Positions 1,945-39,708 of a DNA stretch of 39,708 nucleotides are shown piece by piece. This DNA is from a virus, in the IMG/VR virus record IMGVR_UViG_3300045988_140580, one strand, 5' to 3'. Below the pieces are notes generated by a model that saw nothing but the letters and a program-made list of their open reading frames with translations, did not search any database and was not told where the DNA came from. Each line of letters starts with the position of its first letter. Within the stretch, counting starts at the first letter, position 1. The position numbers were made by a program, and so were the translations under genes.

Positions 1945-2337
1945 TTACTGTTTTGAGCGTATATACATAAAAGTACCAATAAGTAATATGATTCCGATAA
2001 TGATATTAAGAGATAATAAATAAGCTGTTTCATTTTTTAATTTATTAACTTCAGATTCTAATTGTTTTATTTTGTTATAATTTTGCGTTATTGTTTTTCC
2101 CTGTGCTTCATTTATTAATACTGTTTCAGATAAAACCTCATCAATACGCTCATTTGGCTGTAATGTTTGGGGATCTATATGCGGTTGAAAATTTCTATAT
2201 TTATCATTATACCACTGAACAAATGCATTATGTGTACCTCGGTCCCATGTATCATTTTTCCAGTCGTAGGCCATTATTTCCATAACAGAGACAAAGAGTA
2301 AACATAAAGAAATTATAATTTTGAAGAATATCTTCAT
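1945..2337 (-). CDS. Secreted/membrane protein (N-terminal signal peptide or TM, coiled coil, C-terminal TM). Candidate lysogenic-conversion or superinfection-exclusion protein.
   Basis: The ORF track gives 1945..2382 from a TTG start. The more plausible start is ATG 2337 (MKIFFKIIISLCLLFVSVMEIMA), preceded by GAGGTG. The C-terminal hydrophobic segment is LLSLNIIIGIILLIGTFMYI. It is co-oriented with the repressor and int. Confidence 0.5.
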   Translation of the reverse strand: MKIFFKIIISLCLLFVSVMEIMAYDWKNDTWDRGTHNAFVQWYNDKYRNFQPHIDPQTLQPNERIDEVLSETVLINEAQGKTITQNYNKIKQLESEVNKLKNETAYLLSLNIIIGIILLIGTFMYIRSKQ

Positions 2338-2434
2338 TTTATACACCTCAATTATATGTAAATTATAAGAATAGTATAGCAAAATATAGGTATCCTTAGA
2401 ATACTTTTGTATTCTTTAGATACCCATATTTTAG

Positions 2435-2611
2435 TTATTGCTTTTTATTTTCAGTTATTAGAATATTTTCATTATCATTAACATATTTTGTAATATGTCG
2501 TGTTAAATATCCGCTTACAGTGTCGCCTTTTATTTTTAGTATTTTTTGAAATTTGTTTTTTAGTTCACTATCTATTCTTATTTGCATGAACTTTTCTTTT
2601 GTGTCTTTCAT
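2435..2611 (-). CDS. Small ribbon-helix-helix (Arc/Mnt/CopG-like) DNA-binding protein, 58 aa. Candidate lysogeny repressor. Not in ORF track (under 60 aa).
   Basis: Hand translation of the minus strand gives MKDTKEKFMQIRIDSELKNKFQKILKIKGDTVSGYLTRHITKYVNDNENILITENKKQ*. The pattern is a beta-strand (FMQIRIDSEL) with alternating hydrophobics, helix A, a G-D-T-V-S-G loop (the G-x-S/T-x-S RHH hallmark) and helix B. An RBS AGAAGGGAAG lies 9 nt upstream. It is divergent from the early operon, with operators between them. Confidence 0.6.
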   Translation of the reverse strand: MKDTKEKFMQIRIDSELKNKFQKILKIKGDTVSGYLTRHITKYVNDNENILITENKKQ

Positions 2612-2637
2612 ATAATATCACTTCCCTTCTAATATTC

Positions 2638-2665
2638 ATTATAGCAGGTTTTTTAAGTTGTGACA
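2638..2665 (-). promoter_or_regulatory. Sigma70-like promoter for the RHH gene (minus strand): -35 TTGTCA (2665..2660), 16-nt spacer, -10 TATAAT (2643..2638)
   Basis: Read on the reverse complement. The -35 overlaps the operator half-site at 2660-2676. Confidence 0.45.
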
Positions 2666-2676
2666 ATGTAGTAAAA
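2660..2676. promoter_or_regulatory. Operator-like site O1 (half-conserved): TGTGACAATGTAGTAAA
   Basis: Shares CAATGTAGTAA with O2 and O3. Overlaps the -35 of the leftward promoter. Confidence 0.45.
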
Positions 2677-2692
2677 AAAAACAAATTAGGTA

Positions 2693-2721
2693 TTGACTTT
2701 GTCACTACATTGTAGTAATAT
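2693..2721 (+). promoter_or_regulatory. Sigma70-like early promoter: -35 TTGACT (2693-2698), 16-17-nt spacer, -10 TAATAT/AATATA (2715-2721)
   Basis: Near-consensus hexamers read directly. Operator O2 lies inside the spacer. The promoter is upstream of the first early gene (ATG 2822). Confidence 0.6.
2700..2717. promoter_or_regulatory. Operator O2: GTCACTACATTGTAGTAA (perfect 6+1+6 palindrome ACTACA-T-TGTAGT)
   Basis: Palindrome read directly. Located in the spacer of the early promoter. Confidence 0.6.
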
Positions 2722-2780
2722 ATACTCAACGAAAGGGAACATATCAAAATATAAAGTTCCCAAAAATTTTTAACTTCTTA

Positions 2781-2797
2781 TGTCACTACAATGTAGT
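2781..2797. promoter_or_regulatory. Operator O3: GTCACTACAATGTAGTA (palindrome ACTACA-A-TGTAGT) in the early-transcript leader
   Basis: Second perfect copy of the O2 palindrome, about 25 nt upstream of the first early gene's RBS. Confidence 0.55.
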
Positions 2798-2821
2798 ACA
2801 ATCAAGAAAGGAAGGGTAAAC

Positions 2822-3193
2822 ATGGAAGAAGTAACAAAGGAAATGATAATGGACGCTTTGACTGATTATGTTTCTGAATTGTCTGAAGAAGACACAATTA
2901 CACTATGGAATGCCTATTGTGAAGACTACAACCAGATGCACCGATTCATTTATCTAAATGATTTTGACGAACTCGACAGCGTTTTTAAGTCACCTTCAGA
3001 AGCTTTGTATATGGCACAGTATTCACCGTATCACATCAACGACAGATATTTTACTTACAGTTCTTTTTGTGGGCTTATGTCTTTCAGTTTTCTTACAGAT
3101 GAAAATAGTCCGGTAGTAGTTGATGAATTAGTTAGCTACCTGATGAGTCAAAGAGCTGTATATATTTTAGTAAAAAGTCAGTTAGAAAGGTAG
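2822..3193 (+). CDS. Early protein, strongly acidic (about 22 D/E vs 7 K/R in 124 aa). Candidate DNA-mimic / anti-restriction protein (by composition only).
   Basis: ATG 2822 with RBS AAAGGAAGGG; the ORF-track start at 2780 is less likely. It is the first gene of the host-transcribed operon, the position of T7 gene 0.3 (Ocr). Confidence 0.6.
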   Translation: MEEVTKEMIMDALTDYVSELSEEDTITLWNAYCEDYNQMHRFIYLNDFDELDSVFKSPSEALYMAQYSPYHINDRYFTYSSFCGLMSFSFLTDENSPVVVDELVSYLMSQRAVYILVKSQLER

Positions 3194-3202
3194 GTAATTA
3201 CT

Positions 3203-3418
3203 ATGACACAGAGAATCACGGAAAAATTTTTAGATAACATGATTAAAAACATCAATAACAGAACTGGCAGAAAGTACTTCTTAGAATATGCATACGGTGG
3301 GGTAAAACTGGCGCATACATACGAAAACGGCGGATACACAGATGAAAGTTATAGAATGACAAAACGAGAAATGTATTATGTCCTAGATGCTTTACAGCAC
3401 TTCATCAATCACAATTAG
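3203..3418 (+). CDS. Hypothetical early protein (71 aa)
   Basis: ORF with RBS GAAAGGTAGG. No recognisable motif. Confidence 0.5.
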   Translation: MTQRITEKFLDNMIKNINNRTGRKYFLEYAYGGVKLAHTYENGGYTDESYRMTKREMYYVLDALQHFINHN

Positions 3419-3426
3419 TGGATTTT

Positions 3427-3480
3427 ACAGGGTGCCTTAGAAAACTAAGGCACTCGATAAAGGCCACTAGAAGCCTTTAG
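3427..3480 (+). other. Conserved intergenic RNA element, copy A: two stem-loops (GUGCCUUAG-AAAA-CUAAGGCAC; AAAGGC-CACUAGAA-GCCUUU)
   Basis: Paralogous to 4177-4230, with compensatory base changes that preserve both stems. Confidence 0.6.
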
Positions 3481-3507
3481 GCAGTTAGGTAGAAAGGAAG
3501 TAATATC

Positions 3508-3963
3508 ATGACAAGAATTAGCCTGTATCACGTAGAGTTAGTAAAAGATAGCAGCCATAACTATAACGTCTCAAGAGATATGTCTAGCCCGTATAATGTC
3601 ATTCATATGCTTGTAAATACATTGCATCTGGACAAACGCAACGTAGAAAATTTTGGCATGATTGCAGTTAATACGCAAAACAAATTAATAGCTGTACAGA
3701 TTTTAACGCAAGGATCTATCGATACATCTATAGCAAGTACTAGAGAAGTCTTTCAATGCGCTTTACTGCATAATGCACGTGCCATAATACTATTCCATAA
3801 TCATCCTTCCGGGAATTCTGGTCCTTCTAAAGAAGATATAGCAATAACTAAAAGGATAGTTAAAGCTGGGGAACTACTAGGTATTCCGGTATTGGACCAT
3901 GTGATTATAGGTAGTGAGAACGATTACTTTAGCATGAGAAGTGAGGGAATTATCAATGACTAA
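3508..3963 (+). CDS. RadC-like JAB/MPN-domain protein (DUF2466 family)
   Basis: Motif ILFHNHPSGNSGPSKEDIAITKRI matches the RadC-like HNHPSG...PS.xDxxxT signature. 151 aa. Confidence 0.85.
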   Translation: MTRISLYHVELVKDSSHNYNVSRDMSSPYNVIHMLVNTLHLDKRNVENFGMIAVNTQNKLIAVQILTQGSIDTSIASTREVFQCALLHNARAIILFHNHPSGNSGPSKEDIAITKRIVKAGELLGIPVLDHVIIGSENDYFSMRSEGIIND

Positions 3964-4180
3964 CAAAGAATTAGCAAGAAAAATATACGATACGGGGCGT
4001 AATGAAACAACTACAGGAAACTGGGTTTTTCACATAAGTGAGTTAGATGGCAGGACGCCAGAAGAAGGTATGTATATCCTGTTAGATGAGTATAGAGAAG
4101 ACATTTTAGACATAACGTGTACAGATACAGAACTGGATATCATTTTCGCATTAGCTGTTTGTCCTTATTTTCAAGAGTGA
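3956..4180 (+). CDS. Hypothetical early protein (74 aa)
   Basis: ATG 3956 preceded by GAGGGAA. It overlaps the end of the RadC-like gene. Confidence 0.5.
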   Translation: MTNKELARKIYDTGRNETTTGNWVFHISELDGRTPEEGMYILLDEYREDILDITCTDTELDIIFALAVCPYFQE

Positions 4181-4230
4181 ATTTAACAGAGTACCTTAGA
4201 TAACTAAGGTATTCGATTAAGTCCACTAGT
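4177..4230 (+). other. Conserved intergenic RNA element, copy B: GUACCUUAG-AUAA-CUAAGGUA(U); UAAGUC-CACUAGU-GACUUA
   Basis: Same architecture as copy A. The loop CACUAG is conserved while the stems co-vary. Confidence 0.6.
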
Positions 4231-4264
4231 GACTTATCACATGTAACCAGAAAGGATGATACAT

Positions 4265-4846
4265 ATGTTAGCACAGGAAATTTTAAAAGTATTAGCACTC
4301 GATATGACTGAAAAAGAAAAAGTAGAAAAAATCCAAAAACTATGCACCGATGATATTTATGTACACACATGTAGCAAGCCTGTAGGCAATCGGTTTAAAT
4401 TCATACAGAAAGAGTGTAAGAAGGCTAAAAGACCTTGCTTAACAAAGGTACACAGATCGGAAAAATATGGCCTAGTCTGGACCGATGCTTATGTATTGTG
4501 CACGTTTAGAGATGATACATTTCCTACTGATTTATTAGCAACAGAAAAGGAAAAACTAAATGTAGACAATGTTTTAAAGAGTGTAGGTAATGATAAAGCC
4601 AATGCAAGTGTTGAATACAAGGACGTAAAAGCACGGCTTGCTTGTCTATCGACGAAAAAAGAAAAAGAAGCGGACATAATCGAAATAGGGGATTCAATTT
4701 TCAAGACTTGCTTAGTTGACAAAGTTTTCAAATTTTATGGCCTGGACAAACTGAATTTACATACAAAAAATAGCTGTGTTGCATACGGTTATACAGAAAA
4801 TGGTGATGCATTCTTAATTTGTCCGATGAAAAAGGAAGTTAAATAG
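4265..4846 (+). CDS. Hypothetical early protein (193 aa), Cys/Lys-rich, no recognised motif
   Basis: ATG 4265 with RBS AGAAAGGA at correct spacing; the track start at 4256 is too close to the RBS. It is the last gene before the terminator hairpin. Confidence 0.55.
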   Translation: MLAQEILKVLALDMTEKEKVEKIQKLCTDDIYVHTCSKPVGNRFKFIQKECKKAKRPCLTKVHRSEKYGLVWTDAYVLCTFRDDTFPTDLLATEKEKLNVDNVLKSVGNDKANASVEYKDVKARLACLSTKKEKEADIIEIGDSIFKTCLVDKVFKFYGLDKLNLHTKNSCVAYGYTENGDAFLICPMKKEVK

Positions 4847-4951
4847 ATATGAGTACAAAAGAGAAGATAGAAGGATATGCATACTACATCATACTTTGTC
4901 TCTTGTGCATGTTGTGTGAATACCTAGATAAAAACTTAATATAGTTAAGCT

Positions 4952-5005
4952 AAAAATAGCGTGTACTTAGAAATTTTTAAGTCACTCTAAGTACACGCTA
5001 TTTTT
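4952..5005 (+). terminator. Perfect 19-bp inverted repeat (AAAAATAGCGTGTACTTAG ... CTAAGTACACGCTATTTTT) with a 16-nt loop, followed by a T-run. Intrinsic terminator and/or RNase III-type site.
   Basis: Arms at 4952-4970 and 4987-5005 read directly. Located between the early genes and the RNAP gene. Confidence 0.75.
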
Positions 5006-5035
5006 ATATATAAATGCATGAACAAACGTTCTGTT

Positions 5036-5058
5036 AATTGTCCCACTATTAAGAGAAA
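5036..5058 (+). promoter_or_regulatory. Phage-RNAP promoter P1 (variant): ATTGTCCCACTATTAAGAGAAAT, followed by a degenerate copy ATTTGTCCCTTATTTAGAAAGG
   Basis: Member of a 4-copy family sharing ATTGTCCCACTAT(T/C)AAGAGA. Immediately upstream of the RNAP start codon. Confidence 0.6.
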
Positions 5059-5095
5059 TATAATTTGTCCCTTATTTAGAAAGGTGGTTAAAAAT

Positions 5096-7636
5096 ATGTA
5101 TACGCTGGAACAACAATTGGAAGTTGAAAAAATGTATAAGACAGTAGCGGAAGATTCCTTTTTTTCAAAATTGAATCAAGACAAGCAAGAAGGTAACTAT
5201 TCTAGAAGTTCCATAGGTAAAGGAATTATAAAGCAGGTTATGGCACCTTTTACAAAAAACATACACATAAAACTACAGGAAGTCACACTGAGTAAAAAAG
5301 GAGTAAAACCTAAATATTATGCAGTTCTCAAAAAATTCATGGATTACTATATAAACGACATGGATACTTTTGTTAATACATTAGCATTACAAACAATAAA
5401 GGTAGTAGTAAACAACATTGCTACCAATAGAAAAAACTGCAATATGATAGCTAGTGTTATAGGTACAGAACTACAAGATGAAGTAGAATTATATGCCTTT
5501 ATGCATACTGTCGAACATGCAGAAACAAGATATAGTAAAGACATAAATAAACGTGTAGGGAGGAGTTTCAAGAAGAATTTTATCTTACATGCATATCAAG
5601 GGAATGATTTTGTATTTCCTAAATTCAAAAAAACGGAGCTTACAGCTTTAGGCATGGAAATGATAGCTATACTTACAGAATCAGTAGACTTTTTCTACAT
5701 AGCTATGACAGGCGAAAAAGGTTTATTGGAGTTACATCCTAGTGATATGTTTTTACAAGCTGTCATAAAGTCGGAAGAAAACATTATGTCTAGGACGGTT
5801 AAATTAGTACCAACTATAATACCTCCTAAAGCATGGAAAGGAATATTTGAAGGAGGGTATTATGGGGCGTTAGGTATCCAAAATAGATTTATGCGTCATC
5901 ATCCCTATATGAAAGGCACAAAAACATTAAGTAGATACCTGGCACGGCTTAATGAATTAGACCTAACACCTATTTACAGAGCAGTTAATAGGATCCAGAA
6001 CACTGCCTATCATATCAATAGTTATATGCTCGATGTAGTAGGTTCTATATTAGAAAGCGGTGGAAATAGGGCAGGTATACCCCAGATGAAACCATATGAA
6101 AAACTTCCGGCTTTTCCGTATGGAGACAAAGAGATAGAAGAGTCTGAGGAATTGCAAGTGCTATTTAAAGAACATAAGAAGAAAATGATAACCATGATAC
6201 ATAAAGAAAACCAGAGACAAGGCAAGGCGCTAAGGTGCACCATGGTGTACAAATTAGCTAAAGATTTTAGCAGATTTGAGACAATATACTTCCCAATGAA
6301 TATTGATTTTCGAGGGCGTATATATCCCATTCCTACGGGTCTTAATCCACAGGGGGATGATATGACAAAAGGTTTACTGGAATATGCTTTTCCTAAAGCT
6401 GTGTCTAGTGAAGATTCCTTGCAATGGCTTATGATTCACGGTGCAGGGTTAGCAGGGCACGATAAAATTTGTCTGGATGAACGTGTACAATGGGTACAGG
6501 ATAACAAAGATAACATTGTAAATAGTGTCGATAATCCCATAGGGTACACATGGTGGCAAGAGCAGGATAAACCTTTCCAGTTCCTAGCGTGGTGCAGGGA
6601 ATACGTCAATGCCTTAGCTTATATGTTTGCACACAATGGCTCTTTAATAGGGTTCGAGTGTCATTGTGTAATAGCATATGACGGTACCTGCTCTGGACTT
6701 CAGCATTACTCTGCATTACTGAGAGATCCTGTTGGTGGCAGTGCGGTAAATCTGGTGGACCATGATAAGCCTAGTGATATTTATCAGGAAGTAGCAAATA
6801 AAGTTCTGATATCAGTAGAGAATGATTCTCATAATGGCACTATAGAAGATACAGACAGAAAAGGAAATAAGATACCTGGTACAAAAGCAATAGCGGAAGC
6901 ATGGCTTGCACATGGTATCACACGGAAAGTTTGTAAACGCCCTGTAATGACACTAGCCTATGGATCTGGGCAATATGGTTTTGGGGACCAGATTTTTGAA
7001 GATACGACAAAAGACAATCCCTTCTTTAATGGTGTAGGTGACTTCAGGGCAGCTAGATATATGGCTAGTAAGGTATGGGAGACTGTACAGACAACTGTAG
7101 TTTCTGCTACACAGGGCATGTCTTTTCTTAAGGAGTTAGCTAATGAGTTAGCGTCTGATAATATGCCTGTAGAATGGATTACACCGTTGGGATTGCCTGT
7201 ACAACAGATGTATCTTGATTTACATACGGAATGCTTCAGGTTACGGTTTGGTGGTGCCAGTGTGCGCTATCGTATATATGTTACAGAGCCGAAGGAAGGG
7301 GAAGACACAGACAAAAAGAAGCAGGTGTCTGGTGTTGCTCCTAACTTCATTCACTCCCTAGATGCTACTCACTTGATGATGTCTGTTAATGCTTGTGAGA
7401 ATGTGTCTAACTTCACTACGGTCCATGATTCATTTGGTACGTCATTAGGTGAAGCAGAGGAGCTGAGAGAAGTTATTAGACAGCAAATGGTTAAATTGTA
7501 TAGTGAAAATGAGCCACTAAAAGATTTTAAAGCTCATGCTGAAGAATTGCTAGGCAAACATATTGATATAGATTTACCCCGAAAAGGCACATTAGATATC
7601 AATTCTATTTTGTCTAGCAAATTTGTGTTTCACTAA
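5096..7636 (+). CDS. T7-like single-subunit DNA-dependent RNA polymerase
   Basis: The 846-aa protein has TTVHDSFGT (T7 RNAP motif C HDSFGT) and a palm/fingers region similar to T7 gene 1. The start is ATG 5096 after AAAGGTGG; the track's upstream ATG 5018 would place promoter P1 inside the gene. Confidence 0.95.
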   Translation: MYTLEQQLEVEKMYKTVAEDSFFSKLNQDKQEGNYSRSSIGKGIIKQVMAPFTKNIHIKLQEVTLSKKGVKPKYYAVLKKFMDYYINDMDTFVNTLALQTIKVVVNNIATNRKNCNMIASVIGTELQDEVELYAFMHTVEHAETRYSKDINKRVGRSFKKNFILHAYQGNDFVFPKFKKTELTALGMEMIAILTESVDFFYIAMTGEKGLLELHPSDMFLQAVIKSEENIMSRTVKLVPTIIPPKAWKGIFEGGYYGALGIQNRFMRHHPYMKGTKTLSRYLARLNELDLTPIYRAVNRIQNTAYHINSYMLDVVGSILESGGNRAGIPQMKPYEKLPAFPYGDKEIEESEELQVLFKEHKKKMITMIHKENQRQGKALRCTMVYKLAKDFSRFETIYFPMNIDFRGRIYPIPTGLNPQGDDMTKGLLEYAFPKAVSSEDSLQWLMIHGAGLAGHDKICLDERVQWVQDNKDNIVNSVDNPIGYTWWQEQDKPFQFLAWCREYVNALAYMFAHNGSLIGFECHCVIAYDGTCSGLQHYSALLRDPVGGSAVNLVDHDKPSDIYQEVANKVLISVENDSHNGTIEDTDRKGNKIPGTKAIAEAWLAHGITRKVCKRPVMTLAYGSGQYGFGDQIFEDTTKDNPFFNGVGDFRAARYMASKVWETVQTTVVSATQGMSFLKELANELASDNMPVEWITPLGLPVQQMYLDLHTECFRLRFGGASVRYRIYVTEPKEGEDTDKKKQVSGVAPNFIHSLDATHLMMSVNACENVSNFTTVHDSFGTSLGEAEELREVIRQQMVKLYSENEPLKDFKAHAEELLGKHIDIDLPRKGTLDINSILSSKFVFH

Positions 7637-7654
7637 GCAAGAACATAGAGTTTT

Positions 7655-7720
7655 GCAGAAGCACGTATAGAGTAGAAGCATAGGTTTAGACAAAAGTCAA
7701 GACTTCTGCTTCTACTTTTT
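7655..7720 (+). terminator. Hairpin(s) plus T-run after the RNAP gene (AGTAGAAGCA ... TGCTTCTACTTTTT; alternative GCAGAAG/CTTCTGC)
   Basis: 10-bp stem at 7671-7680 / 7707-7716 followed by TTTTT. Confidence 0.55.
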
Positions 7721-7743
7721 AATTGTCCCACATATACTGAAAA
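7721..7743 (+). promoter_or_regulatory. Promoter half-site variant AATTGTCCCACATATACTG, in tandem 27 bp upstream of P2
   Basis: Shares ATTGTCCCAC with the promoter family but diverges downstream (CATATA instead of CTATTAAGAGAGA). The same tandem arrangement recurs at 39358. Confidence 0.4.
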
Positions 7744-7746
7744 TCT

Positions 7747-7778
7747 TATTGTCCCACTATTAAGAGAGAAGGGAAAGG
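7747..7778 (+). promoter_or_regulatory. Phage-RNAP promoter P2: TATTGTCCCACTATTAAGAGAGAAGGGAAAGG
   Basis: Consensus family member. The CACTAT core matches T7 promoters (TCACTATAGGGAGA). It occupies the position of T7 phi1.1. Confidence 0.75.
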
Positions 7779-7884
7779 AATACCTTAGGTATATTAAGTA
7801 TTCCTTAGTTACTTTCTTGGTTACTTACTTAGTAGTTAGTTAGTAGTATTCCTAAGGAATACTAGGAAGGAGCAGAGAAGAGAA
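7776..7884 (+). other. Structured 5' leader downstream of P2 (12-bp stem AGTATTCCTTAG ... CTAAGGAATACT around a loop rich in TAGT/TTAG repeats)
   Basis: Inverted repeat at 7797-7808 / 7851-7862. An alternative pairing is GGAATAC with GTATTCC. Confidence 0.45.
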
Positions 7885-8307
7885 ATGTACAGCGTAGGAG
7901 ATTATGTAGTTATTCGAGAAATACCGGAAACCAATCGTTTTTCTAAATATAACGGTTTGGTTGCTAAAATTATCGGTAAACCTTACTCACAAATTTTAGT
8001 CTATGAAGTATGTATCTGTGGGTTAGAAGATGAAGGTAGTATCTATGTTGAAAGTGTTAATTTAGAACCATATGAAGATGTAGATTGCTACCATGACTCC
8101 CACTACAGAAACAGTGTCTTAGAACCCATTCTGGTAATGCAGAGTATGTTCACGCATGAAGAGTTCATAGGATTTCTCAAGGGAAACATTCTGAAATACA
8201 GATTACGCCTGGGACATAAAGACGATATCCAAAAGGAAATGGACAAGATACAGAGATACGAACAGTGGTTAGCAGAAGCAGAGGAGGGTAAGAAAATTAC
8301 GATATGA
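7885..8307 (+). CDS. Hypothetical protein (140 aa), first gene after P2
   Basis: ORF with RBS GGAAGGAG. No confident motif. Confidence 0.55.
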   Translation: MYSVGDYVVIREIPETNRFSKYNGLVAKIIGKPYSQILVYEVCICGLEDEGSIYVESVNLEPYEDVDCYHDSHYRNSVLEPILVMQSMFTHEEFIGFLKGNILKYRLRLGHKDDIQKEMDKIQRYEQWLAEAEEGKKITI

Positions 8308-8789
8308 TTTACAAAATTGAATTTCATAAATTACGGGATGATGTAGTAGTTCCACAGATTCAGACGGAGGGTTCAGCAGGTGCAGACTTAGTGGTACCAG
8401 ATGATACCTATATCCCACCTTTCCATAGTGTGGGTCACGGAACGCTTGTGCCTTTAGGGTTCTCTTTAGATATCCCTAAAGGAATGCAGGTACACATTAT
8501 GTTACGGTCAAGTGTAGGGCTGAATACTCCATTACGATTATCTAATGGTGTCGGTTTGATTGACTCAGATTACAAAGGCGAAATTTGTCTGCTATTAGAT
8601 AATTTGTCTAAAAATATCGTTTTTATCAAAAGTGGGACTCGAATAGCACAAATGCTACCTTTTTGCAGTGCGAAGTGGGAACTTTCTTCTATTGTCCCAC
8701 TATCAAGAGAGAAGAGGGATAAAATCCCAATCCAGAAAAGAACAGGTGGATTCGGTTCCACCAACAGAAAAAGGAGCGATAGCGAATGA
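8304..8789 (+). CDS. dut: dUTP pyrophosphatase (dUTPase)
   Basis: Trimeric dUTPase motifs: GSAGADL (motif 2), GLIDSDYKGE (motif 3) and RTGGFGSTN (motif 5). 161 aa. Promoter P3 is embedded in its 3' part. Confidence 0.85.
   Translation: MIYKIEFHKLRDDVVVPQIQTEGSAGADLVVPDDTYIPPFHSVGHGTLVPLGFSLDIPKGMQVHIMLRSSVGLNTPLRLSNGVGLIDSDYKGEICLLLDNLSKNIVFIKSGTRIAQMLPFCSAKWELSSIVPLSREKRDKIPIQKRTGGFGSTNRKRSDSE
8690..8721 (+). promoter_or_regulatory. Phage-RNAP promoter P3: TATTGTCCCACTATCAAGAGAGAAGAGGGATA (inside dut, upstream of SSB, like T7 phi2.5)
   Basis: Family member with one substitution (T to C). Confidence 0.7.
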
Positions 8790-9328
8790 AAATCAAAGGG
8801 AAAGCATTTTGGGCAAAAGTAAGGACACCAGAAACATATCAGGGAAATCCTGTGGGATACTCTGTACAGGTTGAAATGCCTGAGGAAAATCTTCAGCGCA
8901 TGAAGGATTACTTTACTGACAAATGCAAAAATGAACAGTTTACAGACAAACGTTGTGATGGTGAAATCACACTGCCAATCAAGGTCGATGAAACCACAGG
9001 TAGAAAAACGGTAAAGGTAAAGACTAAACACTTCTATGTCGAAAAAGCTACAGGCAAGCAGGTTAATAAGGTAATCCCTATTTACAACGAATATGGTGAA
9101 ATTATTCCGGAAGATGTACTTATTGGGAACGGCTCTGATGTAGAAGTAGCCTGTAACTGCAAATTCTTCTATGATTCTGCTAAGAAGTGGGGCGTACGGC
9201 TCTACTTACAGAGCATGATGGTCACTAACCTTGTCAAATACAGTACAGACGGTTCAGATGAATTCGAGTTTAAGAAACGTCCTGAAGTGGAAGAAGCAGA
9301 CGTGCAGGAAGATGAGGTGGATTTCTAA
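8786..9328 (+). CDS. T7 gp2.5-like single-stranded DNA-binding protein
   Basis: 180-aa protein. The acidic C-terminal tail ends in ...EEADVQEDEVDF, with a terminal Phe as in gp2.5. Gene order matches T7. Confidence 0.8.
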   Translation: MKIKGKAFWAKVRTPETYQGNPVGYSVQVEMPEENLQRMKDYFTDKCKNEQFTDKRCDGEITLPIKVDETTGRKTVKVKTKHFYVEKATGKQVNKVIPIYNEYGEIIPEDVLIGNGSDVEVACNCKFFYDSAKKWGVRLYLQSMMVTNLVKYSTDGSDEFEFKKRPEVEEADVQEDEVDF

Positions 9329-22750: not shown

Positions 22751-22792
22751 GGGAGAGGTTCACTCTTAGGGTTCCTCTCCCTATTTATTTAT
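22751..22792 (+). terminator. Intrinsic terminator after the capsid gene (GGGAGAGG ... CCTCTCCC stem followed by TATTTATTTATCT), analogous to T7 Tphi
   Basis: 8-bp GC-rich stem at 22751-22758 / 22774-22781 followed by a T-rich tract. Confidence 0.75.
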
Positions 22793-34721: not shown

Positions 34722-34754
34722 TAAGTGAATAATAAATGTAGGTAATCTTATGAT

Positions 34755-34794
34755 GAGGTATTTTAAGAGTTCTTGAGAACACTCAAAATACCTC
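34755..34794 (+). terminator. Long near-perfect hairpin after the tail fiber gene (GAGGTATTTT...AAAATACCTC with inner GAGT/ACTC). No T-run; terminator or RNA processing site.
   Basis: Inverted repeat read directly. Confidence 0.4.
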
Positions 34795-34840
34795 AGAAAA
34801 CCTTGGTTACATTTGTGATTACGTAATAGGAGAATGATAG

Positions 34841-37324: not shown

Positions 37325-37371
37325 AAGGCTCCCTCTAGGTGTAATTACCTATGGAGCCTTTTATTATTTTT
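37325..37371 (+). terminator. Interrupted hairpin (AAGGCTCC..TAGGT..ACCTA..GGAGCCTT) followed by TTATTATTTTT
   Basis: Arms at 37325-37332 / 37353-37360 with an inner TAGGT/ACCTA pairing, then a T-run. Confidence 0.6.
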
Positions 37372-37396
37372 AAATTCGCAAAGGGGTGAGGAAATA

Positions 37397-37651: not shown

Positions 37652-39335
37652 TGACGCTAAGAAAGATTTTCGTAAGTTTCTGTTCATTTTATGGGATGAG
37701 ATTGCGCTCCCTGAGCCTACAGGCATACAATATGCCATAGCGTCATTATTGATGAAATGCCCACAGAAACGATTCATTATAGAAGGATTCCGTGGTGTAG
37801 CTAAGTCGTTTATTACATGTGCTTATATTGTTTGGTGTCTATGGAATAACCCGCAGCTGAAATGCTTGATAGTGTCTGCTAGTAAGGATAGAGCGGATGC
37901 TAATGCGGTATTCATACGACGTATCATTTACTTACTAGACTTTTTGTCTGATCTTAAGCCTAGAGATGGTCAACGTAATACACAGAACCTTTTTGATGTT
38001 GGCTTAGCAATACCTGATATTTCTCCTTCTGTAAAATCCGTTGGTATTACAGGTCAGATAACAGGCAGCCGTGCAGACATATTGGTTGCAGATGACGTAG
38101 AGATACCAAACAATTCCAGTACACAGGTCCGTAGAGACAAACTATTCGAGGATGTAAAAGAATTTGATGCTATTATAAAGCCGGGGGATAGTAGTAAGAT
38201 TATATACCTTGGAACTCCCCAAAATGAGATGTCACTATATAATGAATTACAGAATCGTGGCTATGGTGTCTTTGTATTCCCTATCGTATATCCGGAAACA
38301 CCAGAGGAACGTGAATACTATGGAGACAAATTAGCTCCCTTTATTGCTGAACCGTATGATAGAAATCCGGAGCTATACGCAGGCAAGCCAACAGATCCTA
38401 AACGATTCCCAGAAGAAGAAATTGAAGAACGTAGATTATCCTACGGTAAGGCAGGGTTTTCTTTACAGTTCAAACTGAATACTAACTTGTCTGACTATGA
38501 AAAGTATCCATTAAAAGTACAAGACCTGATTGTCTCAGAAGTGGATTTGGATGAAAGTTCACTGAAGTGGGCATGGGCAAGCAGTTATGAGTACAGATTA
38601 AACTCATTGCCTTGTGTAGCAGTCAAAGGTGATTATTTCTATAGAGAGTTCGGTAGAAGTAAGGAGACAGCTAAATATACAGGTACCGTTATGTCTATAG
38701 ACCCATCTGGTAGGGGAACAGATGAAACTGCTTACTCTATTGTGAAATACCTGAATGGTTATCTTTTTGTAGTAGAAGTAGGTGGTTATTCAGAAGGATA
38801 CTCTGATTCTGTACTGACACAGTTAGCAAATAAAGCAAAAGTGTATGGAGTAAATGAGATTGTCGTAGAAGCTAACTTCGGGGATGGCATGTTTACACAG
38901 TTATTCAAGCCCATACTGAATAAAATACATCCATGCTCCATTCAAGAAGTGAAGAACACTAAGCAGAAAGAAGCTCGTATTATTGATACACTGGAACCTG
39001 TTATGATGAGACACAAGTTAATAGTAGCAGAGTCAGTCATTAAAGATGATTATATAATATATGAAAATAAAGGACAGAATTACTCTCTGATATATCAACT
39101 GACACGCCTAAGCAGAGACAAAGGTTCACTATCACATGATGACCGCCTGGACTCCTTAACAATGGCTGTGTCGTATTGGTTAGAAGTTATGGATAGGGAT
39201 GAGCAAGTAGGGATGGATGAACAACTGGATGACTTTCTAGAAGCAGCTATGGATGATGACAGGGGCATCTTCTCACTGATGTATGGTAATACCGATATGA
39301 ATAAAAATAGGAATATAATGAATAAAAAATGGTAG
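37620..39335 (+). CDS. Terminase large subunit, T7 gp19-like. The conserved N-terminus is encoded upstream of the track's start, with no canonical start codon.
   Basis: Very high identity to T7 gp19 (FRGVAKSFITCAYIVW, LIVSASKDRADAN, SPSVKSVGITGQITGSRADI, IYLGTPQ, YGKAGFSLQF, IDPSGRGTDETAY). The frame is open from 37620 and encodes LLTQWTQEQIDDAKKDFRKFLFILW, which aligns with T7 MSTQ...DFVAFLFVLW. The first in-frame ATG is at 37752. Confidence 0.9.
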   Translation: MLTQWTQEQIDDAKKDFRKFLFILWDEIALPEPTGIQYAIASLLMKCPQKRFIIEGFRGVAKSFITCAYIVWCLWNNPQLKCLIVSASKDRADANAVFIRRIIYLLDFLSDLKPRDGQRNTQNLFDVGLAIPDISPSVKSVGITGQITGSRADILVADDVEIPNNSSTQVRRDKLFEDVKEFDAIIKPGDSSKIIYLGTPQNEMSLYNELQNRGYGVFVFPIVYPETPEEREYYGDKLAPFIAEPYDRNPELYAGKPTDPKRFPEEEIEERRLSYGKAGFSLQFKLNTNLSDYEKYPLKVQDLIVSEVDLDESSLKWAWASSYEYRLNSLPCVAVKGDYFYREFGRSKETAKYTGTVMSIDPSGRGTDETAYSIVKYLNGYLFVVEVGGYSEGYSDSVLTQLANKAKVYGVNEIVVEANFGDGMFTQLFKPILNKIHPCSIQEVKNTKQKEARIIDTLEPVMMRHKLIVAESVIKDDYIIYENKGQNYSLIYQLTRLSRDKGSLSHDDRLDSLTMAVSYWLEVMDRDEQVGMDEQLDDFLEAAMDDDRGIFSLMYGNTDMNKNRNIMNKKW

Positions 39336-39357
39336 ATTTCTGGTATCCCAGAAATCT

Positions 39358-39380
39358 TATTGTCCCACATATAGGAAAGT
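39358..39380 (+). promoter_or_regulatory. Promoter half-site variant TTATTGTCCCACATATAGGAAAG, in tandem 28 bp upstream of P4
   Basis: Same arrangement as 7721-7743. Confidence 0.4.
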
Positions 39381-39384
39381 CGCT

Positions 39385-39418
39385 TATTGTCCCACTATTA
39401 AGAGAGAGAAGGGAAGAC
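39385..39418 (+). promoter_or_regulatory. Phage-RNAP promoter P4: TTATTGTCCCACTATTAAGAGAGAGAAGGGAAGAC (right-end promoter, like T7 phiOR)
   Basis: Full family member downstream of the terminase gene. Confidence 0.7.
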
Positions 39419-39627
39419 AAAGGAAAACTAAAGTATCTAAGGAACTCTAATTATACTAAGTATACATATGTACTCAGTTAGCTGTCCTTTAGCGCACTGA
39501 AGTATTCCTGTATCCTTCAGTATCCCTAAAGTATCAAACACTATATCCCATATCGGATAGACAAGGAATAAGCAACTAACAGCTAAACACTTACCACTAA
39601 TTACACACTCATAGGAAGCCTATGGGC

Positions 39628-39708
39628 ATCACCGTCGTCTTTGGCACATCCATTGCGACCATCTTCGGCGTATTCCTCATTCCGATTCTGTTCATCATCG
39701 TAGAAAAT
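39628..39708. repeat. Right copy of the 81-bp terminal direct repeat
   Basis: Identical to 1-81. Confidence 0.9.

Follow-up and report, generated by a model that had tools for sequence, protein, structure and literature searches.

Phage promoters around the polymerase gene and at the right end

We analysed a stretch of viral DNA of 39,708 nucleotides, IMG/VR record IMGVR_UViG_3300045988_140580 (hereafter the window, always at its full length), for a family of short repeated sites resembling promoters of a T7-type RNA polymerase. The window is ~39.7 kb of T7-like sequence with ~39% G+C, and nearly all of its genes lie on the + strand. A single-subunit RNA polymerase of 846 amino acids is encoded at 5096-7636 (+ strand) and is presumed to read all the sites. 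It is 34-35% identical to T7-group polymerases over 99% of its length and aligns with T7 gp1, the catalytic and specificity-loop regions included. The gene starts at 5096 and not at the first ATG, at 5018. After it the gene order matches that of T7, with a nucleotide kinase, dUTPase, gp2.5-like single-stranded DNA (ssDNA)-binding protein, endonuclease, amidase, and primase-helicase.

The 10-mer ATTGTCCCAC occurs six times in the window, all on the + strand, against 0.08 expected. Four of the six copies, P1 to P4, have a purine-rich start region. The 24-mer ATTGTCCCACTATYAAGAGAGAAG is matched at 5037 (three mismatches), 7748 and 8691 (none), and 39386 (two), again all on the + strand, with zero matches in 100 shuffles. 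A shorter sequence, ATTGTCCCACATATA, is present exactly at 7722 and 39359. The first-pass annotation of this DNA, made from its letters alone, called it a half-site; we refer to it as the variant site. The succession of this sequence, 8-14 nt, and the 10-mer is found twice (0 expected), with start-to-start spacings of 26 bp (7722/7748) and 27 bp (39359/39386). The four full and two half sites listed in the annotation do exist, though every coordinate given for them was one base too low (5037, 7748, 8691, and 39386; 7722 and 39359). Full and variant sites alike sit intergenically or at gene ends.

P1 (AATTGTCCCACTATTAAGAGAAATA, 5036-5060, + strand, predicted start G5053) is directly before the polymerase gene, 43 nt from its start codon, and a promoter is kept at that position in all relatives examined. 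On the other side of the gene an intrinsic-terminator-like hairpin with U5 (7669-7719, + strand; -24.8 kcal/mol, z = -6.2) directly follows the coding sequence and abuts the left variant site (AATTGTCCCACATATA, 7721-7736, + strand). The spacer CTGAAAATCT then leads to P2 (TATTGTCCCACTATTAAGAGAGAAG, 7747-7771, + strand, predicted start G7764). P2 is predicted from its position to be a middle-gene promoter driving the nucleotide kinase and dUTPase genes and those after them. Its leader (7775-7864, + strand) contains a cluster of short repeats, direct and inverted, of AGTATTCCTWAG and AAGGAATAC. P3 (TATTGTCCCACTATCAAGAGAGAAG, 8690-8714, + strand, predicted start G8707) falls within the dUTPase gene at its 3' end, with the gene for the gp2.5-like protein starting 79 nt downstream. 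Two copies of AAGTGGGA (8630-8637 and 8669-8676) are found 15-60 nt upstream of P3 within the dUTPase coding sequence, and relatives have them too. They are the reverse complement of TCCCACTT from the promoter core, which may reflect coding constraint or chance.

At the right end, the terminase large-subunit gene ends at 39335. A hairpin (39334-39357, + strand; -12.7 kcal/mol, z = -4.3) follows it and abuts the right variant site (TATTGTCCCACATATA, 39358-39373, + strand), after which come GGAAAGTCGCT and P4 (TATTGTCCCACTATTAAGAGAGAGA, 39385-39409, + strand, predicted start G39402), 50 nt after the terminase gene. Two of the related lineages introduced below, C and D, lack the hairpin; in them the variant site overlaps the stop codon of the terminase gene. 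Between P4 and the attachment (att) core there are zero + strand genes, and in a circular genome P4 is directed across att, antisense to the integrase gene. The annotation had placed P2, P3, and P4 where T7 has phi1.1, phi2.5, and phiOR, which agrees with the T7 annotation: gene 1 is followed at 26 and 101 nt by phi1.1A/B and gene 19 at 99 nt by phiOR, with phi2.5 placed 51 nt ahead of gene 2.5.

Promoter cores and polymerase specificity in related phages

To the megablast search of positions 4800-9300 against GenBank phages no near DNA relative responded, and relatives were obtained only through protein-anchored searches (IMG/VR, metagenomes, and a Megasphaera genome). They carry sites at the same positions, each lineage with its own version. 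Lineage A (the window and L001) reads CAC-TATTAA-GAGAG and lineage B (L002-4 and L021) reads CAC-ATAGTA-GAGAG. Lineage C has CAC-ATACA-GAGG, lineage D has the same with the core ATTGTCACAC, and lineage E has CAC-AGAGTA-GAGG. Within one genome all promoters changed together. The ordinary promoters, P1-P4 in the window, consist of the recognition element, about six lineage-specific bases, and a purine-rich G start (GAGAGAAGGG). For the L010 lineage the promoters were taken from L244; repeats within L010 did not reveal them.

The sites also co-vary with the specificity loop of the polymerase. Lineages with a core ending ...TC-C-CAC have an Arg at the position equivalent to T7 N748, and those with ...TC-A-CAC have a Gln (core ATTGTC-C-CAC versus ATTGTC-A-CAC). 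This column is one of just five among ~852 that separate the C-core from the A-core lineages. The pairing of base and residue holds for lineages C, D, and E. Polymerase distances do not place the Gln lineages in a single clade, since L147 and L150 are nearer to lineage C than to L145 and L146. Positions 748, 756, and 758 of the T7 polymerase are established co-varying specificity determinants (PMC11880802). A further difference between lineages A, B, and C-E is found where the polymerase aligns with the intercalating hairpin of T7, which fits their differing -6 to -1 segments. A one-to-one code between the residue equivalent to N748 and the variable base was tried and rejected, as it fails in L330 (Gln with G) and in L244 (a window-like loop with a different promoter).

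That the motif is a promoter family of the phage polymerase, as the first-pass annotation proposed, is borne out by the conservation of the sites in relatives and by their co-variation with the specificity loop. It is near-certain from these comparisons that P1-P4 are promoters of the phage's own single-subunit polymerase, with ATTGTCCCAC as the upstream recognition element. We place +1 at the G of GAGAG (G5053, G7764, G8707, and G39402) because five bases separate the 11-mer AATTGNNNCAC from a G in most lineages; these starts are predictions that we infer only from alignment with T7, SP6, and the sister lineages. Two details of the annotation did not survive the comparison. It had CACTAT shared with T7 at -10 to -5; in T7, however, CACTAT occupies -7 to -2, and the family shares CAC only. 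The resemblance is largely coincidental, because sister lineages read CACATAGTA, CACATACA, or CACAGAGTA there. ATTGTCC, described as unique, is one allele among lineage-specific cores (ATTGTCACAC, ATTGTCCACC, ATTGTGGCAC, ATTGGTGCAC, and others).

The family belongs to the well-known T7-type class. Like the promoters of T7, T3, SP6, and K11, these sites span ~23 bp with an upstream element read by the specificity loop, a melting and initiation segment, and a purine start. They are likewise coding-strand repeats at gene boundaries, with a lineage-specific core that co-varies with the residue equivalent to N748. The differences lie in number, core, and register. There are four promoters here versus 17 in T7, and none here precedes the late genes; the small number has precedents in KP34 and LUZ100. 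The cores are unrelated (ATTGTCCCAC here versus TAATACGACT), and CAC is at about -9 to -7 here, roughly one or two positions further upstream than in T7. Unlike the class II and III promoters of the T7 group, the second class of site described below differs at -5 to +8 and is found only upstream of a full promoter. Taken together, the phages offer a natural set of no fewer than 10 recognition cores, and the clean Arg/Gln-C/A switch is useful to decode and engineer orthogonal transcription.

A variant site paired with a full promoter

We inspected the DNA after the terminase stop codon in ~70 related contigs, an anchor that presupposes no motif. A variant site followed at 27-28 bp by a full promoter is found there in 13 lineages with 10 different cores, examples being ATTGTCCACC, ATTGCGGCAT, ATTGTGACAC, ATTGGTGCAC, ATTGTGGCAC, and ATTGTGCCAC. 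Two further lineages have a looser pair with a spacing of 36-39 bp, and more distant phages have a single T7-like promoter after the terminase gene instead. The right variant site of the window belongs to this set, which is kept downstream of the terminase gene in lineages A to E and in others besides; in lineage E the same right-end pair came from a metagenome scan. A scan of viral contigs for ATTGTCNCACATATA gave mostly chance matches, with two real modules in ~120 among the matches listed, and was replaced by anchoring on the terminase and polymerase genes.

The two members of a pair share their recognition element. Nine of the 13 lineages have identical 10-mers in the two, and the remaining four agree at 8-9 of 10 positions. 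Of the seven variable core positions, the members of one pair share 6.6 on average, versus 4.7 for comparisons between lineages. In lineage D both members read ATTGTCACAC, in both polymerase sub-lineages (L163 and L168). Downstream of the recognition element the members differ. At -5 to -1 the variant sites are 92% A+T (ATATA, GTATA, TATTA) versus 69% for the full promoters, and at +1 to +8 their G content is 12% (consensus WACAAA(A/G)) versus 43% (GAAGRA or GAGAG).

This second signature did not move with the promoters. ATTGTCCCACATATA is the same in lineages A and B at both loci, while the full promoters of these lineages differ at five of the six positions from -6 to -1. Across lineages A to E a constant TATA-like segment, CACATATA, stands beside promoters with TATTAA, ATAGTA, ATACA, or AGAGTA. 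The left variant site is invariant in the window, L142, L143, and L021. In L142 the spacer between the sites is largely rewritten and both sites are intact, a comparison that suggests selective constraint on the variant site and not on the spacer. By its conservation the variant site is a second class of site, with a full upstream recognition element and a conserved segment of its own, and not a decayed half. The pair after the terminase gene is, to judge from its distribution, old and widespread and not a local duplication. The module that the annotation described is present at both loci of the window; its reading as a half-site copied locally was misleading, since the upstream element is complete and the pair occurs in 13 lineages.

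A decayed duplicate or recombination scar, with the half-sites as non-functional remnants of promoter duplication, would account for the fact that the two modules of the window can be aligned over ~50 bp only, which fits a copied cassette, and a clearly degenerate element does follow P1. However, the 15-mer is invariant where promoters and spacers have diverged, the arrangement is kept with 10 cores that track the specificity of each lineage, and it is present in a phage (L330) with a polymerase only ~37% identical. We regard decay as very improbable.

We think it just as hard to credit that CACATATA beside the promoter is recognised by another protein, such as a repressor, a regulator like T7 lysozyme, or the small terminase. 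The constancy of CACATATA, which does not co-vary with the polymerase, would suit such a protein. Repressor sites on the flanks of phage promoters have been proposed for temperate T7-like phages (PMC10134795), and some promoters in lineages C to E have operator-like inverted repeats beside them. Yet the left part of the site changes with the promoters, which is unexpected for an independent protein, the site lacks dyad symmetry, other lineages have TATTAA or TAATAA instead of ATATA, and no candidate regulator is tied to it.

The pair is also found after the polymerase gene. In L330, which came from the metagenome scan and whose polymerase is 36-38% identical to that of the window, a ATTGTCGCACATATACCAAAGTGTTA-ATTGTCGCACAAGTTGAAG pair lies ~230 nt after the gene. 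It is followed by ~270 nt of non-coding, AT-rich sequence and then by a further full promoter. Since L330 has it there, the pair at this position is not peculiar to lineages A and B. Lineages C to E have three tandem full promoters after the polymerase gene and no variant pair there.

In T7, the -17 to -5 region of the promoter confers polymerase binding and the -4 to +6 region governs melting and escape. The T7 polymerase prefers a start with G. From this enzymology together with the shared recognition element, the TATA-like segment, and the lack of a purine-rich start, we expect the polymerase to bind the variant site well and to start there weakly. It would bind through the same specificity-loop contacts, about as well as at a promoter, and the site would melt readily. 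Initiation would then be poor, abortive, or with a different first nucleotide. With the variant site 26-28 bp upstream of a strong promoter there would be room for two polymerase footprints side by side. That the polymerase recognises the variant site is probable, judging from the matched cores.

Second promoter types served by one polymerase are known. T7 phi2.5 starts with A, and starts with AAA or AAC give very heterogeneous products, attributed to an unstable initiation complex (PMC3683919). A promoter of Cronobacter phage CD23823 (AATGTATACCCCTATATACAC), which ends ...CCTATATACAC, was tested and starts with A (PMC12272871), and one polymerase can serve two promoter classes in KP34 (PMC6834552), which has a weak promoter of this kind. 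The variant site resembles these A-initiating promoters in that one polymerase would use a second type of site, and CD23823 illustrates that an A-start promoter can function with TATATAC and A-rich sequence after it. The phi2.5, CD23823, and KP34 promoters stand alone and drive genes, in contrast to the variant site, which is always paired upstream of a consensus promoter. The sister lineages continue after the TATA-like segment with TATA(T)ACAAA or TTAAACAAAA. The copies in the window read ATATA-CTGAAAATC (left, CTGAAAA) and ATATA-GGAAAGTCGC (right, GGAAAG) and lack an A at the predicted start.

What the pair does is harder to decide. A non-coding role is the most likely because the right-end copy has no gene to express and because both loci match replication promoters of T7, where phi1.1A/B is the primary and phiOR the secondary replication origin (PMC8373140). 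As in T7, tandem polymerase sites come immediately after the polymerase gene, and a promoter ~25-100 nt after the terminase gene has no essential gene downstream and is followed by similar short repeats and a similar box. The T7 origins differ in that two full promoters are spaced 75 bp apart at one and phiOR stands alone at the other, where these phages have a distinct variant 26-28 bp upstream of a promoter. The pair would load polymerase and then prime or activate DNA replication, transcribe across the genome end for concatemer processing, or both. For the reading as a whole, a distinct variant class bound by the polymerase with weak or alternative initiation and a role in replication or at the genome end, the sequence comparisons leave the balance about even. 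The role in replication or at the genome end, taken by itself and resting on analogy to T7, we hold as tentative and somewhat doubtful. The most specific form is doubtful to a greater degree: that the variant site is a dedicated non-coding priming or parking site which, with the strong promoter, defines an origin, an end-processing signal, or both across a large temperate T7-like clade.

The simplest competing explanation is a pair of plain tandem promoters, the upstream one weaker or alternative and serving to buffer or add to transcription, with no part in replication or packaging. Tandem promoters are common in phages, as in T7 phi1.1A/B, the three promoters of lineages C to E, and phi2/phi3 upstream of the ssDNA-binding protein gene of LUZ100 (PMC10134795). 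The right copy in the window (TATA|GGAAAG) and that of L325 (TATA|GGGGAAGAGG) have plausible G starts, and 26-28 bp may be the closest spacing that lets two promoters work. The upstream member, however, keeps its own TATA-like and G-poor signature in 13 lineages with no drift towards the promoter consensus. It did not follow the -6 to -1 changes made by all true promoters of the same genome, and the right-end pair has no gene to boost. We consider plain tandem promoters unlikely, if still to be taken seriously.

Alternatively, polymerase held at the variant site could mark the place of terminase action in end processing or packaging, like the paused T7 polymerase at the concatemer junction. 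The pair comes universally right after the terminase large-subunit gene and overlaps its stop codon in several lineages, and the short repeats downstream are like the CCTAAAG arrays of the T7 ends, along with a box conserved to T7 phiOR. T7 polymerase mutants are defective in concatemer processing, which counts for such docking. So does a result from Chung and Hinkle in 1990, reportedly that plasmid packaging by T7 requires an origin and the concatemer junction. The same pair, though, is found after the polymerase gene in lineages A, B, and L330, far from genome ends, and the class II pause signal (ATCTGTT) was not identified here. A polymerase docking site of this kind is improbable on this evidence. 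The half-site itself was also considered as a class II pause signal and rejected, as it has no resemblance to ATCTGTT. TTGTC in the core as a primase site of the T7 type (GTC) was dropped as well, many lineage cores being without GTC. The weak promoter, decoy, and priming element suggested in the first-pass annotation are all live options for the pair as far as its sequence goes.

Several observations weigh against a polymerase-bound variant class that acts in replication or at the genome end. Neither variant site of the window has the WACAAA start of the sister lineages, and GGAAAG on the right could be a good G start. The upstream site of L325 has a G-rich start, like plain tandem promoters, and A and C cores occur together in that phage. 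In L332 the upstream site is A-type and the promoter C-type, and in L176, L178, L180, and L181 the members of the pair differ at 1-2 of the 10 core positions. The co-variation of core and polymerase is not absolute, and the sequences of distant lineages give no simple recognition code. An unwinding region of the type found at T7 origins is weak: the 50-110 nt downstream of the modules are 0.66-0.75 AT compared with 0.61 genome-wide. In the distant relative L330 the AT-rich downstream region is clear. The variant class is no general requirement for an origin, because T7, and lineages C-E after the polymerase gene, use full promoters only. The window also has another candidate origin, an array of 22-bp repeats at 1705-1847.

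The variant site is conserved, follows the binding specificity of the polymerase and not its initiation preference, and sits where there is no need to express a gene. It therefore offers a way to examine polymerase binding apart from mRNA synthesis, and with it what replication promoters of the phiOR and phi1.1 types do in T7-like phages. Were it a dedicated non-coding site, the specificity of origins or packaging would co-evolve with the promoter specificity of the polymerase, in a two-site architecture not described for T7. A conserved pair of variant site and promoter was not found described in the literature searched. A text search of the LUZ100 paper (PMC10134795) likewise turned up no variant-plus-full pair in the text it reached.

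Polymerase leader, late region, and prophage context

An intrinsic-terminator-like hairpin with U5 (4951-5005, + strand; -27.9 kcal/mol, z = -7.1) lies upstream of P1, and the order of hairpin, P1, and polymerase gene is conserved in all relatives. LUZ100, which also has an integrase-carrying T7-like genome with few phage promoters (eight) and tandem promoters, similarly has a phage-specific promoter directly before its polymerase gene and behind a terminator (PMC10134795). By analogy with what is proposed for LUZ100, the arrangement implies that read-through from a host promoter would seed a positive feedback loop. LUZ100 differs in its host, Pseudomonas versus Megasphaera, and no MarR-like regulator was found here: there was no MarR match among the early and lysogeny open reading frames (ORFs) scanned, which included part of the small ones.

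Downstream of P1 by 27 nt, a degenerate recognition element (ATTTGTCCCTTATTTAG, 5063-5079, + strand) overlaps the polymerase leader and its ribosome-binding site. It is the seventh element of the window, reading TTGTCCC at 5065, and the same offset is retained in lineages A and B. L250 has a comparable pair of full and degenerate site, 27-28 nt apart, just after the stop codon of its polymerase gene. With a degenerate element downstream of a full promoter in A, B, and L250, recognition elements are thus again ~27 bp apart, now with their order reversed. The element after P1 could be an autoregulatory binding site for the polymerase.

In lineages C to E (L145-L154) an inverted repeat, CCAAACA-NN-TGTTTGG or a variant of it, is found immediately upstream of P1. 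The same type of repeat also stands upstream of the first and third promoters after the polymerase gene. This repeat may serve a lysogeny regulator as its operator; in the window, only a weak form of it (GAACAAACGTTC) precedes P1.

The late region (8.8-39.3 kb) has almost no intergenic space. A scan allowing up to 2-3 mismatches in the core gave no further + strand core with a purine-rich start in the window. The annotation had also noted the absence of family members before the structural genes, and at this sensitivity we agree, because the relaxed scan (up to two mismatches) is empty there and the region is nearly gap-free. The terminator it described after the capsid gene is likewise present, as a hairpin at 22751-22781 (centroid -17.5 kcal/mol) followed by a U-rich tail. 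Two more strong late hairpins are found at 34754-34795 and 37325-37372 (z = -3.3 and -4.8). Of these, one comes after the tail-fibre gene, and the other has a U-rich tail and precedes the small and large terminase genes. There is no promoter downstream of this pre-terminase hairpin, and expression of the terminase would therefore depend on read-through.

Short repeats of CTAAAGTATC and AGTATNCCT (39428-39538, + strand) lie downstream of P4 and resemble the CCTAAAG arrays at the ends of T7 DNA. As such arrays are at both T7 ends, the physical genome ends may lie between P4 and att. The AGTATNCCT, CTAAAGTATC, and AAGGAATAC repeats cluster mainly after P2 and P4, with a few isolated copies elsewhere (e.g. 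10270, 26332, and 29122). L174, L171, L191, and L204 share with T7 phiOR a conserved box that comes shortly after the right-end promoter. It reads GGACGAAAGGTTACTATATAGATAC in T7 (39245-39270), GACGAAAAGTATATATAGTATC in L174, GGGAAAGGTTATATATAGG in L191, and GGAAAACTAAAGTATCTAAGG in the window (39410-39440).

Its integrase, its att repeats, and a related prophage identify the window as a temperate T7-like prophage of Megasphaera, a Negativicute of the gut. The tyrosine integrase is encoded at 181-1263 on the - strand (phrog_1, E = 2e-51). The att core is a direct repeat of 81 bp (+ strand), with the left copy at 1-81 and the right copy at 39628-39708, where homology to the Megasphaera locus L021 begins. 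That locus is in Megasphaera sp. AM44-1BH and holds an integrated relative with 82% polymerase identity. Homology of this prophage to the window begins at window position 1, beside a 1055-aa host ORF that ends inside the 81-bp repeat. In L021 this ORF (2050-5217) ends in att, the integrase gene is next (5245-6327), and a 385-aa ORF precedes the 1055-aa one. Judged by their sizes, the two host ORFs may encode an RND efflux pump. Integration appears to take place in the 3' end of the host gene, with the phage bringing a substitute for that end in the form of a small hydrophobic ORF from 39622. In several viral contigs the terminase gene, module, att, and integrase gene are contiguous in that order, so the free form is circular or circularly permuted in assemblies. 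The interest of the system includes a T7-like prophage with a putatively self-amplifying polymerase gene in a gut Negativicute.

Rfam gave no known RNA family within the window. The 1705-1847 array consists of five 22-bp direct repeats (ATACATyrGAAATACTTATmAC) in an AT-rich non-coding gap of 680 bp between the integrase gene and the - strand lysogeny genes. Besides an origin, these iteron-like repeats could be integrase arm sites or repressor sites. A 58-aa ORF of the ribbon-helix-helix type (2435-2611, - strand) is a candidate repressor, its match to RelB being only sub-threshold, and divergent sigma-70-like promoters are found at ~2638-2726. The early gaps at 3419-3507 and 4181-4255 carry the same two elements, a hairpin (GTGCCTTAG-aaaa-CTAAGGCAC or GTACCTTAG-ataa-CTAAGGTAT) and then a CCACTAG box. 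The combination is reminiscent of the RNase III processing sites between the early genes of T7.

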